The notes under the pieces are model-generated. The model was not told where the DNA came from. It searched no databases and was given only the letters and a program-made list of their open reading frames with translations. Positions 33,101 to 37,528 of a DNA stretch of 64,000 nt are shown here, piece after piece. The DNA lies in assembly GCA_030016755.1 (NCBI GenBank), contig JASEJC010000001.1:4883-68882 (forward strand). The letters run 5' to 3'. Every line of letters begins with the position of its first letter. Position 1 is the first letter of the stretch. A program made the translations under genes and the position numbers. This DNA is from Candidatus Hodarchaeaceae archaeon. Its GTDB lineage: Archaea; Hadarchaeota; Hadarchaeia; Hadarchaeales; Hadarchaeaceae.

Positions 33101-36100
33101 ATCGACGTCCATCATGGTTACATCTATCCACGTGGGCCACCAACCATTCTCCCAATATCCGTAAAAGTTCTCGCCTTCGATCTCGATCCAAATCCCATAA
33201 GTTCCATTCGGGTTCCCGGGATTTCCTCCGTACTCATACTCTGGGGCCTCGACCTCATATGGTCCGCGCTCAAAAGAGGCCCCTGCCTCACCCCTAAGGC
33301 TTCCTATGAGCGTTCTCGATTCGACCACGGGCTGCTCGAGGTTCCCCGCCCTGTCAACGGCGAGGGTGCCGAACTCGTAGTAACCGTCCTCCTCGGGGGC
33401 GTCGAATGAGCACTCCCATGGCCACTCGTTATCAACACCGTAAAGCCTCCAGTCGTTCCAGCCCATGTTGTCATTTGAGTACCTGTAGAACAGCATGACC
33501 TCTTTAACGCCGCTCCGGTCGTCCGTCGCGGTTGCCGTGATAGTGAAAGGCAGCTCACTTTGCCAGTAGGGTGAGATCGTATCTACAGATGAGGTGGGCG
33601 GGACGGTATCGATGTAGACGTATGTGGCCCCCGACCAATCGCTCCAAGCCCCCGCCCCGTTCTGTGCGCGGACCTTGATGTAATAAATGCCATCAGCTAA
33701 AGTTGGATGATAGCTAGTATCCGTTGTGTAAAACGTGTCTTCCGACCAAGAGCGGTATACCTCATATTGATTCACCCCAGTATCAGGATCGCTTGCTACC
33801 CAGTACCAATGCGGTGAATTGTGGTTCGACCATTCTCTGCCGCAGTGATCCTCACCGACTATCGGGGTAGTTGGAGGCGTTGTATCCACGACTAAGGTGT
33901 AAGTGCCGTCACCGCTAATTTTACGAACCTCGATATAGTAATAACCCGACATCTCCGCAGTATAGATTATCTCCTCGCTCATGTGGCCTAGATGTGTGGA
34001 ACTCGCGATTAAGTTCTGTTCAGGATCGTATAGATGAAGGTCGAAATCACATTCGTGGTTTTCTTTTATGCCAATCGTTTTGCCCTTTTCTGCCCCAATT
34101 TGATAAAAGTCCTTTATATCCACCCCTCTTAAGCTGCCTGTGTATCTCCCCGAAAGTATCCTCCTTGGGCAATCAAGATTATCGCCTGCATCGCCTGCGA
34201 ATCCCGCATCAAATTGTTGTTCGATCCTAATCATCTCCGTGTCTAAATAACTTACCCCGGCGTATTTCGCTCTTGCTCTCAGGAGATAAGTGCCGCTTGG
34301 AGCATTTGCCGGCGCAAATATTGACTCCCTATAATACGCAGAACTGCCTGATCCGAGGGTAGTCCTATCAATAAGTCCGCCACTGATGGTCTGGCCATTA
34401 CTGTCCATGAACTCCAAGTATACATCAACTCGCTCTAAAGTGCGTGGTAAGTTATTACGCACATCGAAGAGAACGTAAAACTCATCGCCTGCCATAACTT
34501 CTGAAGGGGCCTCTAATAAATTAACGGTCAGCTCATTAATGACCCTCATCGGCATTTGTGGATCACCTAGCAAAACTGTTGTCAGTATCAGACCCCGATT
34601 ATTTGGATCACCGACCCCTTTCTCTTGTAAGTACTGCCGCTTTGCGGCATCTAAACACACCGCCGGTTGGTACCGATGTTCTGTAAAAAATTTCTGCCAA
34701 AAAAGAACATCAAGTTTTCCGCTTAAATCCTCATTAAGACCAGGTTCAAAAAGAACTCCGTGCACGTATGGTGCCTCTCTAGAGTTACCTACATAAGCGA
34801 TTGCAGTTTTTCCTTCGACAAAGGGACTGTATAGAGAATATTCACCTATCGTTGGTTTATCGTAATCGAAACTCGCAGAATAACATGCTACTACATACAT
34901 CAAAAAACCTTCTGAATTTGTAAGTTGAGCTACCGTGCATTCTCGGTAAAATGGAAAAAAGTCCTTTTTTCCTTTCTTTCCTTTTGCCGATAACTCAATT
35001 TCGTTTCCATGTGAAAACGAGTTAATGATTCCGGGTTCAAGTTGATTTATGGCATTCACTACGTTTATCTCTGTTAAATTCGCATCTTCGTCATAAAGTG
35101 TATGAGTGTCAACCTGCCCCCTTGCGAAATTAGCTATGGGGGCTTTAACTTCTGAACCATAATGGTCCCTAGTCCAACTTTGGTATATCCAGCCGCCGAG
35201 TAAAAGGAAATCCTCAACCGCCGGGCGATTAGCACCATACTCTGTGATCTTTTTAATAGATGGGGTTGGTACCCTGCTGACGTGGACCTCTGGTATCCAA
35301 TCTACTTCATCAAAAATTATCGATCCTAAAAAGGAAGCAAATTCACCGAAATTGCTATTGGTATTGTAATCGTCCCAAGTTCCATCCAAACAAGCATAAT
35401 AAGAATCTGCTGGCGCAAACGCTCGCCAAACCTCTCCGCGTTTCTTTGCTTGTTCTTCGAATATCCCATACAAGCGTACGTATCTTGTAGGAAGTTCCCA
35501 GTAATTGTCAAGCGCTGGTGGCTGCGGTGTCGCATCATAGGACGTTGGCCTATCGGCTGGATCCACGTCACCATTCAACAACACCCACTTGACATTTTTA
35601 TTAAGATAATACCATTTAATGCAATTTCTTATTTTTTCCGGTATATCTCTACCTTGGTAAGTATTTGTGATGCCGAGTGTGACATGGTCAAAAATCACGT
35701 TCCCGTCTTCGCTTTGATCTACCGTGACAACGTATGTTTCTAACCCCCAATCCTCTTTTTGCCGTACAAAGGCGTTCAAGTCCGCATCAACTAACTTTGG
35801 TCGCGTCACGATGAGGTAACCATCATCATTTGAGTTCTCTTGGGAGGCTAAATCATCATGTTTGATTTCAGACTCTAGACTATTATATGGAGGGTCTACT
35901 TCTACATACACCTTAATTTGTTCATAAAATACCATCTCCCCTACTGAAGGACGATATTGAATCGGGTAAACCCAGATGCCAATTACTAGCGACCCTCCTT
36001 CCCCACCCACCACCATAGCTTCCCCCAAACGTCCGGGATAGAATAAACCTGAATTATAAACGTTCCCATCCAGAAATAAAACCGTTGATTGTGATGTTTG

Positions 36101-36457
36101 TGCTGGTATAATGTAACTACCTTCAGTAAGTTGAAGTGTAATAGGGTCACTTGTTTCAAAACTAACGCTTACTATCTGTGGCAGCTCTTCTAACAAACAA
36201 CCGTCAGCCCAAGGAACTTTCAACAAATGCCCTTTGTAAGGCAACATCGGCTTGCCTTGAGCATTTAAGTAGGTACAATTTTCAATTCTCACAATGCTAT
36301 AATTTTCGTTTTCTTCGATTCGAGGAAAATCAAACGTAAATGTGTATTCAACTATTACGTTTTGGTTGTCTGATATAGTCTCGGCTGCCATGCTCACTTG
36401 AGAAGTGCCATTTTCTACGAGCGTGAAACCAGAAGTTAAAGGAATAAAACAAAGCAA
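30101..36457 (-). CDS. Giant 2118-aa multidomain cell-surface protein: N-terminal C25 (gingipain)-like cysteine peptidase domain, one Ig-like module, kelch-like beta-propeller, five further tandem Ig-like modules (six in all), Ca-binding dockerin-like motif, Gly/Gln/Pro-rich C-terminal tail
   Basis: The clan-CD His/Cys dyad context is 'FSHGNEIEL' and 'VVACYSASFD'. Five propeller blades carry 'W(R/S)YSIS.N.W'. Six repeats of about 105 aa read 'VDT.PP.SSVD.I.PYWQ....P..VTA.A.D.LSGV...EL.YRYS.DN..W..W...'. The dockerin-like motif is 'IGDHDGDGVPDLMVKF'. The tail is 'GQGQGHG...GQGQGPP...'. The TTG start listed by the ORF finder is uncertain. Confidence 0.8.
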   Translation of the reverse strand: MLCFIPLTSGFTLVENGTSQVSMAAETISDNQNVIVEYTFTFDFPRIEENENYSIVRIENCTYLNAQGKPMLPYKGHLLKVPWADGCLLEELPQIVSVSFETSDPITLQLTEGSYIIPAQTSQSTVLFLDGNVYNSGLFYPGRLGEAMVVGGEGGSLVIGIWVYPIQYRPSVGEMVFYEQIKVYVEVDPPYNSLESEIKHDDLASQENSNDDGYLIVTRPKLVDADLNAFVRQKEDWGLETYVVTVDQSEDGNVIFDHVTLGITNTYQGRDIPEKIRNCIKWYYLNKNVKWVLLNGDVDPADRPTSYDATPQPPALDNYWELPTRYVRLYGIFEEQAKKRGEVWRAFAPADSYYACLDGTWDDYNTNSNFGEFASFLGSIIFDEVDWIPEVHVSRVPTPSIKKITEYGANRPAVEDFLLLGGWIYQSWTRDHYGSEVKAPIANFARGQVDTHTLYDEDANLTEINVVNAINQLEPGIINSFSHGNEIELSAKGKKGKKDFFPFYRECTVAQLTNSEGFLMYVVACYSASFDYDKPTIGEYSLYSPFVEGKTAIAYVGNSREAPYVHGVLFEPGLNEDLSGKLDVLFWQKFFTEHRYQPAVCLDAAKRQYLQEKGVGDPNNRGLILTTVLLGDPQMPMRVINELTVNLLEAPSEVMAGDEFYVLFDVRNNLPRTLERVDVYLEFMDSNGQTISGGLIDRTTLGSGSSAYYRESIFAPANAPSGTYLLRARAKYAGVSYLDTEMIRIEQQFDAGFAGDAGDNLDCPRRILSGRYTGSLRGVDIKDFYQIGAEKGKTIGIKENHECDFDLHLYDPEQNLIASSTHLGHMSEEIIYTAEMSGYYYIEVRKISGDGTYTLVVDTTPPTTPIVGEDHCGREWSNHNSPHWYWVASDPDTGVNQYEVYRSWSEDTFYTTDTSYHPTLADGIYYIKVRAQNGAGAWSDWSGATYVYIDTVPPTSSVDTISPYWQSELPFTITATATDDRSGVKEVMLFYRYSNDNMGWNDWRLYGVDNEWPWECSFDAPEEDGYYEFGTLAVDRAGNLEQPVVESRTLIGSLRGEAGASFERGPYEVEAPEYEYGGNPGNPNGTYGIWIEIEGENFYGYWENGWWPTWIDVTMMDVDIRVRMEIKEIWGRHWIPEPVDEWVEELEGFRGRIWLPEPVRIGNIEVISVDGNIRSEFAGSDTSDYIYTVWFDLFGDVNVDTHITWPKATARAGVDTTPPESYLDQITPYWQNDETLPLEVTAKASDILSGVGNVELFYRYSPDNSSWSEWRSLGIDDNEPWTWKFDSPAGDGYYEFTSVATDRAGNAEGMRGAVSVVHVDGTFSSISAPASTEGWRGLAWDGGDKVYMRTWSELWSYSISNNTWTHLTAMPAEGASFNSLIWADGHLYALRGYYFDPKHDFWRYSISANRWESMASTPIGIHRGALVWTGDDYIYTLDNGGIFLRYSISGNRWDTLSFPSSMLAADLTWDGRDHIYALLEGTYYSLELWRYTISSDSWVRLKTISGVTPVQAPGYPYPVAIVSIMIPGDGYLYLVWQDGKIWRYELPSGGLMSVASGIGTIWDAVWNGESIYTDGGWKYTPTVKAVVTGAMCGVDTMPPLSSVDPVSPLWQNAGTVPFQVTATVSDALSGAENIELWYRYSADNSTWSDWALYDIDNSEPYSWTFDAPAGDGFYEFYSVAADRAGNREAAPESADAQAGVDTLPPISSLNSIEPHWHNASMLPIEVTAAANDPVPPNGAVPSGMRDVRLYYRYSPDNLNWSGWTLYAADDQSPYAWQFDPSQGNGYYELYSIAADVAGNVEKAPEEPDERIGVDTTPPVSSVDPIEPYWQTLTPFAITATASDGLSGVASVELYYRHSLDNSTWGDWTSFGADNEEPYEWSFDIPAGHGFYEFYSIACDVAGNVEGPPPEADARCATLIPAMIDIDPETLNLRSQGRWITCYIELPGGLDVAKIDVSTVALEGDIFLEGILSAEPWPTEIGDHDGDGVPDLMVKFDRSAVQGLVSVGDNVELTVIGKWGSAPFRGSDTIRVIKPSEGQGQGHGNRPEVPPGQSGGTPGQGGNQGQGQGPPQTPPEQGGQSPGQGQGESGWRAGPGQRGGNLDQGGGNQGRGNAKGKNK

Positions 36458-37276: not shown

Positions 37277-37528
37277 TTCTAACTTACCCTGGTGGCTTAA
37301 ACGCTTTAGATATCAATCTTGATTTTTTGGACTAACCCAGCGCTCATGCTGATTCTGGTCTCCGCCCAGTAGCGGGCCTGACGGGATTCCGACCCAGCGT
37401 GGGGAATTGGGTCTGCTTAATCTCGATACTCACCATAAGTGATAATCTAGCCTTGTATTTGTACTTCCTATGGGCGAAGGAGGTGCTGACGGTCATCTTC
37501 AGGTGCCCCTCTCATCTCCCGACGACTA

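Follow-up and report, generated by a model that had tools for sequence, protein, structure and literature searches.

The 64,000-nucleotide stretch of contig JASEJC010000001.1 analyzed here (herein referred to as the window) encodes on its minus strand a giant open reading frame (ORF) of 2118 codons, in which a gingipain-like (Peptidase C25) head precedes a long stalk of immunoglobulin-like (Ig) and Kelch repeats, and, directly upstream of it, a short gene for a membrane propeller protein. The head and the propeller gene lie in a 3.66-kb AT-rich block whose codon usage and amino-acid composition are typical of a genome of ~40–45% GC, and the entire unit is a lineage-specific insertion into an operon that is conserved among Hadesarchaea. 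We lean toward reading the AT-rich block as a compositionally foreign module, of mosaic or horizontal origin, within this larger surface-protein insertion. The unit and its parts are as follows (aa, amino acids; GC3, GC content at third codon positions; LLR, log-likelihood ratio):

30064..37532, minus strand: lineage-specific insertion of 7,469 bp, comprising a non-coding leader, the propeller gene and the giant protease gene
37277..37527, minus strand: non-coding 5' end of the insert (leader), 251 bp; GC 0.50 overall, 0.545 for 37,341–37,527
36545..37276, minus strand: propeller gene, 243 aa (GenBank QMD95_00230, 239 aa; P0277); GC3 0.44
30101..36457, minus strand: giant ORF, 2118 codons; first canonical start TTG at 36457, single frame across the composition break
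33680..37340, minus strand: AT-rich block (two-boundary likelihood fit, LLR 96.6)
33664..33988, minus strand: support interval of the GC3 change point in the giant ORF (codons 823–931, 2-log-likelihood support)

By composition the insert, with an overall GC of 0.499, falls into the leader of 251 bp (0.50), the AT-rich block of 3.66 kb (0.428) and a remainder of 3.6 kb (0.58–0.59).

Extent and composition of the AT-rich block

In sliding windows of 300 nt, GC content stands at 37–48% across ~33.8–37.5 kb and at 53–63% on either side, and the lowest of the 64 1-kb windows are those at 34–37 kb (GC 0.414–0.433). The two-boundary fit sets a block of GC 0.428 against flanks of 0.562 and 0.572, and the block has a z of −6.3 relative to 1,061 other 3.66-kb windows (GC 0.553 ± 0.020, minimum 0.480). 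The AT-rich island that a first-pass annotation had proposed from the letters alone is hence borne out (z = −6.3 and LLR 96.6), and the sliding windows confirm a low block in a sequence that is not uniform; its outline, however, has changed. The island had been placed at 34300–37300, where there is indeed low GC, and the best-fit bounds are 33,680 and 37,340. They enclose the propeller gene with its promoter region, 87 bp of intergenic DNA (30% GC) and the first 925 codons of the giant ORF, which make up 44% of its 2118 codons and not its N-terminal third. The adjacent propeller gene does belong to the island as proposed, but the low GC ends near 37,340 and does not run on to about 37500, the stretch from 37,341 to 37,527 (54.5% GC) lying beyond the low-GC edge.

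That the composition changes within one reading frame, as had been supposed, is substantiated by the GC3 profile of the open giant ORF, which has one change point, at codon 925 (window position 33,682), with a GC3 of 0.39 before it and 0.65 after it (LLR 72.3; 200 permutations gave at most 7.4). The ORF is free of stops for these 925 codons at 43% GC, and the probability of an open frame arising by chance over the 741 codons upstream of Met742 is estimated at ~1e-19. Relative to 44 other genes of the window (GC3 0.676 ± 0.065), the head deviates by −4.4 standard deviations (SD), the propeller gene by −3.7 SD and the remainder of the ORF by −0.5 SD. At its best estimate, the change point lies where a degenerate Ig-like domain (aa 857–944) ends. 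The break had been expected near the boundary between the peptidase domain and the repeats, at 34.0–34.6 kb; instead it falls ~290 codons past the end of the C25 domain, after a pre-peptidase C-terminal (PPC) domain and the degenerate Ig domain, and GC3 places it ~600 nt deeper into the ORF. The first segment with host-typical composition is Ig repeat 1 (GC3 0.76). A second, weaker GC3 dip occupies codons 1051–1235 (32,753–33,307), where GC3 is 0.51 versus 0.68 (p < 1/300; LLR 9.9 versus a permutation maximum of 9.6), the mean log relative synonymous codon usage (RSCU) is −0.086 and GC is 0.495.

Codon usage and amino-acid composition deviate in the same part of the insert. Mean log RSCU is −0.171 in the head and −0.122 in the propeller gene, compared with +0.045 in the stalk and 0.080 ± 0.053 in host genes (minimum −0.018), which places the codon usage of the AT-rich part 4.7 SD under that of host genes. 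TTA accounts for 32% of leucine codons in the head and for 5% in host genes, and AAA for 67% of lysine codons in the head and for 39% in host genes. The FYMINK/GARP fractions of the encoded protein are 0.266/0.228 in the head versus 0.230/0.298 in host proteins, and for aa 208–866 they are 0.273/0.243, versus 0.225/0.283 in the homologous part of P0058, a protein encoded on a contig of 55% GC. This shift in amino acids suggests that the head has a long history under AT pressure. The claim that the peptidase head and its neighbor gene are foreign to the host thus agrees with log RSCU, with the leucine codons and with FYMINK/GARP. Of the composition checks that accompanied this claim, codon usage favors a foreign head and tetranucleotide signatures do not discriminate.

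Across 54 metagenomic loci, the GC3 of C25 domains ranges from 0.21 to 0.89 and tracks the GC of the respective locus, and in 19 C25 genes with long tails the difference in GC3 between head and tail averages 0.003 ± 0.063, without systematic bias. Membership in the family therefore does not explain a GC3 of 0.39 where the background is 0.68, and AT-rich heads as a general feature of C25 genes are ruled out by the same head/tail comparison.

The insertion site

The insert splits the conserved operon AtpD–PRK04115–small membrane protein precisely between the stop of one gene and the start of the next. The features that delimit it are:

37529..37912, minus strand: PRK04115-family gene (NF003153, 129.8 bits against a cutoff of 114; GC3 0.73)
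37528..37532, minus strand: upstream copy of a 5-bp direct repeat, GTGAT, overlapping the PRK04115 stop TGA at 37531–37529
30059..30063, minus strand: downstream copy of GTGAT, 3 nt before the ATG of the small gene
29771..30055, minus strand: 94-aa gene for a three-transmembrane protein (codon-periodic conservation in nine relatives, alignment A2; hydrophobic segments)

On the plus strand, SecF/SecD (27190–29782) lies on one side; on the other, the PRK04115-family gene is followed on the minus strand by A-type ATPase subunits D, F, C, E, K and I. The PRK04115 gene, which adjoins AtpD in ~30 Hadesarchaea loci, is the last native gene upstream of the insert, and the 94-aa gene is its ancestral downstream neighbor, from which the insert now separates it. 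In 26 Hadesarchaea loci, ~0.3 kb separates SecD from PRK04115 (or from AtpD, if PRK04115 is absent), with nothing inserted, and at that site neither half of the giant ORF nor the propeller gene has a match in the 26 genomes. The ~0.3 kb between PRK04115 and SecD is itself a conserved small gene and not a spacer. Neither the head nor the propeller gene has a match anywhere in the loci L001–L036, where the only match to the stalk, in L020, lies ~9.5 kb downstream of AtpD in another gene context.

Across the PRK04115 stop and the start of the small gene, relatives read an unbroken GGTGATCGAATGG. In the window, the upstream junction, at 37,528, reads ...TTTATGTGAT / AGTCGTC..., and the downstream junction, at 30,063, reads ...TTTAGAAGTGAT / TGAATGAATTCC or, in a longer alternative rendering, ...AGAAGTGAT / TGAATGAATTCC (slashes mark the junctions). 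Since these junctions show that the entire unit was inserted, the repeat protein was not resident at this site, contrary to the proposal that a foreign segment had been fused to a resident gene; indeed, the whole 7.47-kb unit is missing here in the 26 Hadesarchaea genomes. The 251-bp leader shows no similarity to the spacers of relatives or to any fetched locus (blastn, tblastx) and no Rfam match. Neither long att-like direct repeats nor terminal inverted repeats were found at the insert. Integration at a tRNA or non-coding RNA gene was ruled out, as the island has no Rfam or tRNA match near it; the sole tRNA gene of the window is at 50.8 kb.

The small gene that now lies downstream of the insert is of interest in its own right. 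It sits directly downstream of PRK04115 in all Hadesarchaea relatives examined, where it mimics a spacer between the convergent PRK04115 and SecD, and its product matches no Pfam or NCBIfam family. A small ORF in another frame (29760..30059) was rejected because it is interrupted by stops in relatives, the conserved frame being that of the 94-aa gene. In two Hadarchaeota metagenome-assembled genomes (MAGs), L018 and L020, an ORF cluster downstream of AtpD replaces PRK04115 and SecDF; among its products are a surface protein of 1202 aa and proteins whose N-termini (ERGVSPIIG...) resemble the pilin-type signal peptides of archaea. The side distal to AtpD may repeatedly receive surface-protein genes.

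A probable mosaic gene and its possible origins

The domain architecture of the giant ORF, against which the break has to be read, is as follows (HMM, hidden Markov model):

35873..36328, minus strand: putative C25 prodomain, aa 44–195 (Propeptide_C25, E 2.3e-4, 20.8 bits against a cutoff of 22)
34550..35818, minus strand: Peptidase C25 (gingipain-like) catalytic domain, aa 214–636 (PF01364, 108.7 bits against a cutoff of 23)
35009–35011, minus strand: predicted catalytic His483 (homolog alignment and profile)
34883–34885, minus strand: predicted catalytic Cys525 (homolog alignment and profile)
34232..34234, minus strand: Met742, start of the GenBank coding sequence QMD95_00225 (1377 aa; P0011)
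33923..34111, minus strand: PPC domain, aa 783–845 (PF04151, E 1.1e-3), inside the AT-rich part
33332..33613, minus strand: Ig-like repeat 1, aa 949–1042 (repeat HMM, 158 bits)
32753..33307, minus strand: variable insert between Ig repeats, aa 1051–1235 (GC3 dip; 24–28% identity to P0058)
30743..32818, minus strand: host-typical stalk of Ig repeats 2–5 and Kelch (log RSCU 0.06–0.08)
32534–32818, minus strand: Ig repeat 2, aa 1214–1308 (repeat HMM; repeats 2–5 at 153–163 bits each)
about 31688–32440, minus strand: Kelch propeller region, ~aa 1340–1590 (Kelch Pfam matches near threshold)
31394–31678, minus strand: Ig repeat 3, aa 1594–1688 (repeat HMM)
31052–31360, minus strand: Ig repeat 4, aa 1700–1802 (repeat HMM)
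30743–31021, minus strand: Ig repeat 5, aa 1813–1905 (repeat HMM)
30104..30685, minus strand: C-terminal domain, aa 1925–2040 (DHDGDG motif), and Gly/Gln/Pro-rich tail, aa 2041–2118

The Ig-like repeats are of Big_13/DUF7743 type, one of them degenerate (aa 857–944) and five canonical by the repeat HMM, and the linker between the C25 and PPC domains lies within the AT-rich part. The composition break falls ~25 codons before the first canonical repeat, inside a PPC–Ig–Ig architecture common to the homologs, in three of which (P0058, P0016 and P0034) the corresponding PPC domain scores above the Pfam threshold. These three proteins align straight across the break, P0058 being colinear over aa 208–1228 of the giant protein (41.6% identity), P0016 over aa 770–1041 (57%) and P0034 over aa 729–1052 (48%). 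The in-frame fusion proposed at first is hence not a new junction: colinearity across the break indicates recombination within a pre-existing architecture and not a new combination of domains. Ig repeat 1, 60–70% identical to its counterparts in the three homologs, is the most conserved segment in all comparisons.

A comparable break recurs in P0016 (locus L084), which bears a different head (crystallin/PKD). Its gene carries an AT-rich block at codons 516–1010 (GC3 0.39 versus 0.63; neighboring genes 0.67), the 3' end of which (support 995–1010) corresponds to codon ~925 of the giant ORF, so that in both genes the break lies ~25 codons before the first canonical Ig repeat. GC3 also steps in the same direction, though less strongly, in P0034, P0058 and P0138, a C25 gene of Hadarchaeales. 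Farther along the giant ORF, homology switches from P0058-like to P0012-like at aa 1195–1235, coinciding with the end of the GC3 dip at codons 1051–1235; together with the break at codon 925, this makes the gene a mosaic of at least four pieces. The 1193 codons after the break have their closest relative in another Hadarchaeales genome: to P0012 (Hadarchaeum sp. BE2011) the stalk is 76% identical over aa 1195–1691 and 72% identical over aa 1808–2085, more than any of nine housekeeping proteins attains between these genomes (36–67%). The P0012 gene stands in another genomic context and has a non-protease head, and it too lies near a PQQ propeller gene. Third-position saturation is 0.55–0.58 between stalk and P0012 and 0.38–0.60 for housekeeping genes; with synonymous positions equally saturated, it cannot be demonstrated that the stalk was recently exchanged with Hadarchaeum BE2011. 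The five canonical repeats share 46–62% amino-acid identity with each other and their third positions are saturated, a divergence that rules out recent gene conversion among the window's own Ig repeats as the source of the host-like repeat 1.

The homolog P0034 (L083 165–4916) combines C25 and PPC domains with two Ig repeats of the type found in the window (repeat HMM scores of 143 and 109 bits) and with a CHU_C sorting domain of the type IX secretion system (T9SS). Because of this sorting domain, its host is presumably bacterial, and the Ig module seems to be common to archaea and bacteria. The GC3 of its Ig part (0.61) is richer than that of neighboring genes (0.52).

We propose that the head and the upstream propeller gene would derive from an unsampled AT-rich donor and would have taken the place of the 5' part in a homologous gene for a surface protein, through homologous recombination in the conserved Ig-repeat region; such recombination would keep the reading frame automatically. 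Several observations weigh against this proposal. No donor was found: among 1.84 billion representative proteins searched exhaustively, the best relative of the head is P0058, which is 46% identical and sits in a contig of 55% GC, all other matches being at most 37% identical. The repeat flanking the insert is only 5 bp long (GTGAT), which is weak evidence by itself and may be due to chance, and integrase, transposase, tRNA gene and terminal inverted repeat are all absent from 30.0–37.6 kb. The block edge at ~37,340 lacks recognizable homology that would explain a second crossover. The GC-normalized tetranucleotide signature is atypical in both halves of the insert (r = 0.56 and 0.40; other chunks 0.82 ± 0.04), and therefore is uninformative on origin. 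Finally, the four closest Ig-stalk homologs, three of which have the Ig repeat type of the giant ORF, have heads that are poorer in GC3 than their stalks (head and stalk: L082, 0.57 and 0.75; L083, 0.45 and 0.61; L084, 0.39 and 0.63; L085, 0.52 and 0.73), with the step near the first Ig repeat in L082–L084, where canonical repeats could be located.

Further searches with the head returned only distant relatives. Word-indexed database searches gave matches of at most 29% identity, and the head is 31–44% identical to aligned members of the C25 family. A scan of JGI metagenomes with the head as a single protein retrieved nothing close, and a scan with a profile retrieved only relatives of 24–38% identity. 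The named relatives of the head are scattered over Hadarchaeales, Korarchaeota/Thermoproteota and Thermoplasmata. A viral origin was ruled out, IMG/VR containing one weak C25 match (28%) and none for the propeller.

The recurrence of GC3-poor heads in L082–L085 is what one would expect if there had been no recent transfer at all, that is, if the heads and inserts of this subfamily drifted toward AT under a universal AT mutation bias with weak selection or low recombination, with Ig and Kelch modules retaining genome-typical or higher GC3 (e.g., through GC-biased gene conversion among the numerous Ig repeats), so that the break would be a standing property of head and stalk. This drift in situ would also account for the AT shift of the variable insert (aa 1051–1235) beside a conserved repeat 1 at GC3 0.76, for the AT shift of the window's other secreted propeller gene (55462..57336) and for the failure to find a donor. 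We nevertheless regard it as unlikely. The GC3 of the stalk (0.65) matches that of the host background (0.68) without being raised, and the Ig repeats are old, with the divergence given above and no ongoing conversion visible. Low GC spans an intergenic region and a separate gene at an even level before it ends abruptly, diverse C25 genes lack a bias between head and tail, and an intact head with a conserved catalytic dyad indicates that selection has not been relaxed.

Less probable still, in our estimation, is that the whole 7.47-kb unit, already mosaic, arrived in one step from a Hadarchaeales-like genome of ~55% GC, with no fusion having occurred here, a scenario that departs from the donor-replacement proposal only in the order and place of events. 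It accommodates the absence of the entire unit at the site in relatives, the GC-normal sequence on both sides of the block (37,341–37,527 at 0.545; stalk 0.583), the identity of the stalk to P0012 (72–76%) above that of the nine housekeeping proteins, and the break of P0016 at the homologous codon. An old mosaic would, however, be expected to ameliorate, yet GC3 is still 0.39, and the third positions of the stalk and P0012 are saturated like those of housekeeping genes, so that no recent exchange is detectable. Very improbable is an assembly chimera, in which a metagenomic assembler would have threaded a homologous AT-rich fragment of another organism or a paralog at k-mers shared in the repeat region: although the contig comes from a MAG, the break adjoins the most conserved segment, and joins at homologous genes keep frame and colinearity (so that an open frame alone does not exclude one), such a chimera requires two misjoins with the native sequence of one conserved operon flanking both sides, the second of which (~37,340) would fall in non-coding DNA without detectable conservation, no repeated sequence of at least 20 nt ties the borders to elsewhere in the region, and a comparable break is found in independent assemblies from other samples (L084, L085).

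The encoded proteins, their surroundings and their significance

The head looks like a functional gingipain-type zymogen. The PF01364 alignment covers positions 1–373 of the 374 in the model, and the His483–Gly and Ala–Cys525 columns are conserved in at least 90% of 22 aligned homologs. A family profile (A1) aligns these H-G and A-C motifs with GHGS and VAC of RgpB (gingipain R 1cvr_A, E 5.8e-18) and also matches Kgp, as well as the Kgp pro-domain 5mun_A (E 2.5e-10) and the RgpB pro-domain 4ief_A (E 0.004); a direct phmmer search of the PDB with the head returned no match. The C-terminal domain and tail have no Pfam, NCBIfam or PDB sequence match, and the giant protein has no recognizable membrane anchor or sorting signal, its sole hydrophobic segment being N-terminal. 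Judged by these families, the product is likely a secreted, prodomain-controlled cysteine endopeptidase, which would likely sit on a long Ig/Kelch stalk and degrade extracellular protein. At its 5' end (36455–36517, minus strand), the TTG start at 36457 cuts off part of an otherwise good signal peptide, the rest of which is encoded in frame farther upstream (KWIIRILPIFGFLLLCFIPL). The ATG found at 36494 misses this frame by one base (ATGGATTATTAG), and one G fewer would give MIIRILPIFGFLLLCFIPLTSGF...; an assembly error of 1 nt, a real frameshift and a non-canonical start are possible explanations.

The neighboring propeller protein has four blades with the motif DNxPLWSY and transmembrane helices at aa 16–35 (signal anchor) and 218–242. 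Its Pfam PQQ_2 score (23.7 bits) is under the cutoff of 27.6, and its homologs, which are at most 45% identical, are 360–420 aa long and carry PF13360. The AlphaFold2 (AF2) model (mean pLDDT 82.4, core >90) has four 4-stranded blades, for which Foldseek ranks 1l0q_A first among PDB folds (YVTN propeller of an archaeal S-layer protein, E 4e-10), followed by WD40 propellers (~1e-9). As only ~169 columns align with 1l0q_A (TMt 0.36), we call the propeller partial. The membrane propeller, which would have been transferred together with the head, is possibly a partner or anchor of the protease.

The giant protein resembles the C25 gingipains of Porphyromonas gingivalis (RgpB, Kgp) in the putative N-terminal prodomain (inhibitory type) and the caspase-like catalytic domain of its head, in H-G/A-C motifs that align to the RgpB dyad and in the Ig-like domains that follow the catalytic domain. 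It differs from them in lacking a T9SS C-terminal sorting domain (Pfam, NCBIfam), in its much longer stalk with a Kelch propeller and in a head no more than 46% identical to any representative protein. The propeller protein shares YVTN/WD40-like blades with the YVTN/PQQ-like propellers of the archaeal S-layer (Methanosarcina mazei 1l0q) but differs in its four blades, its transmembrane helices at both ends and its subthreshold Pfam score.

Partial gene replacement makes mosaic genes, such as the mosaic pbp genes, and surface-protein genes are found in flexible islands. The insert resembles such horizontally acquired islands and mosaic genes in its atypical GC, codon usage and amino acids, in a site that is empty in relatives, in its surface-protein cargo and in the in-frame junction within a homologous segment; unlike them, it has no integrase, tRNA target, long direct repeats or identified donor, and only half of the inserted unit is compositionally foreign, the other half being host-like. 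In Rhs and polymorphic-toxin genes, a GC-rich conserved core and AT-rich exchangeable tips share one ORF. The giant ORF has the same kind of sharp intragenic break between a repetitive scaffold and a variable module, and the break recurs at the same structural position in P0016; its variable module, however, is an N-terminal protease and not a C-terminal toxin, and it has neither RHS/YD repeats nor toxin domains (Pfam), neither an immunity gene nor, as far as was seen, orphan cassettes. The next gene downstream is the ancestral small membrane protein gene, with nothing immunity-like about it. The giant ORF is not a member of the Rhs family, which may serve as an analogy for a possible mechanism only.

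By extension, the giant surface proteins of Hadesarchaea and their neighbors might form a modular head-swap system, in which a Big_13/DUF7743-type Ig stalk would act as a platform for in-frame recombination; we put this forward as a speculation of low probability. No less doubtful is that AT-rich heads (protease, lectin-like, crystallin/PKD), sometimes with an adjacent gene, would be exchanged in this way across lineages and even domains. The hints are that the break falls at a homologous codon in two genes with different heads (the giant ORF and P0016), that the same Ig module occurs in the presumably bacterial T9SS substrate P0034 and that P0012 bears the same stalk with a non-protease head.

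Several further features of the window and its record deserve mention. Both the source MAG and L027 (isolate Yes49-31) carry the GenBank label 'Candidatus Hodarchaeaceae archaeon', which refers to an Asgard family (taxid 2798925); the AtpD of the window is 82–86% identical to that of Hadesarchaea/Hadarchaeota MAGs and 41–43% identical to that of Heimdallarchaeota, and the synteny of the locus is Hadesarchaeal. The label is probably a mix-up of the names Hadarchaeaceae and Hodarchaeaceae. The only other low-GC spot of the window, at 56–58 kb, surrounds an AT-shifted gene (55462..57336, minus strand; GC 0.46, GC3 0.51, log RSCU −0.056) that encodes a PF09826 Beta_propel protein (E 4e-164). Within 37915–46764, the A-type ATPase genes fall into two groups, I-K-E-C-F-D on the minus strand and A (43335–45383) and B (45373–46764) divergent on the plus strand; the longest AtpA ORF opens with ~80 codons that have a GC3 of 0.26 and are probably non-coding. 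A Cdc6/Orc1 gene (50954–52270, minus strand) adjoins the window's only tRNA gene (region 50810–52270), and a replication origin may lie near it. This tRNA is 90–93 nt long, ARAGORN gave no resolved anticodon for it and it probably contains an intron.

In the public record, the coding sequence that begins at Met742 (P0011) is 100% identical to aa 742–2118 of the giant protein, and the locus tag that follows it, QMD95_00230, belongs to the propeller gene. Codons 1–741 (34232–36457), which hold the putative prodomain and the whole C25 domain, are hence unannotated although their frame is open, and no protein identical to the head is in the database (N-terminal query). Sedimentary archaea, Thermoprofundales among them, have been described as carrying putative gingipain (C25) genes (PMC6461988). 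Within Hadarchaeales, one MAG has a protein that is annotated as a C25 peptidase (P0138).

Neither compositional islands nor mosaic genes nor archaeal C25 peptidases are new, and the current understanding of them stands. What the window adds is a cleanly delimited insertion of surface-protein genes into a housekeeping operon of an uncultured archaeal class, with a mosaic junction that recurs in a related gene. It is also a case in point that a sharp intragenic break in composition may coincide with a truncated gene call, by which a gingipain-like domain has become invisible when Hadesarchaea genomes are mined for extracellular peptidases, a trait central to arguments about protein degradation by subsurface archaea. 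If the proposed exchange were to hold in general, Ig-repeat stalks would be recombination platforms for the exchange of functional heads, an N-terminal analogue of Rhs/CDI tip exchange.

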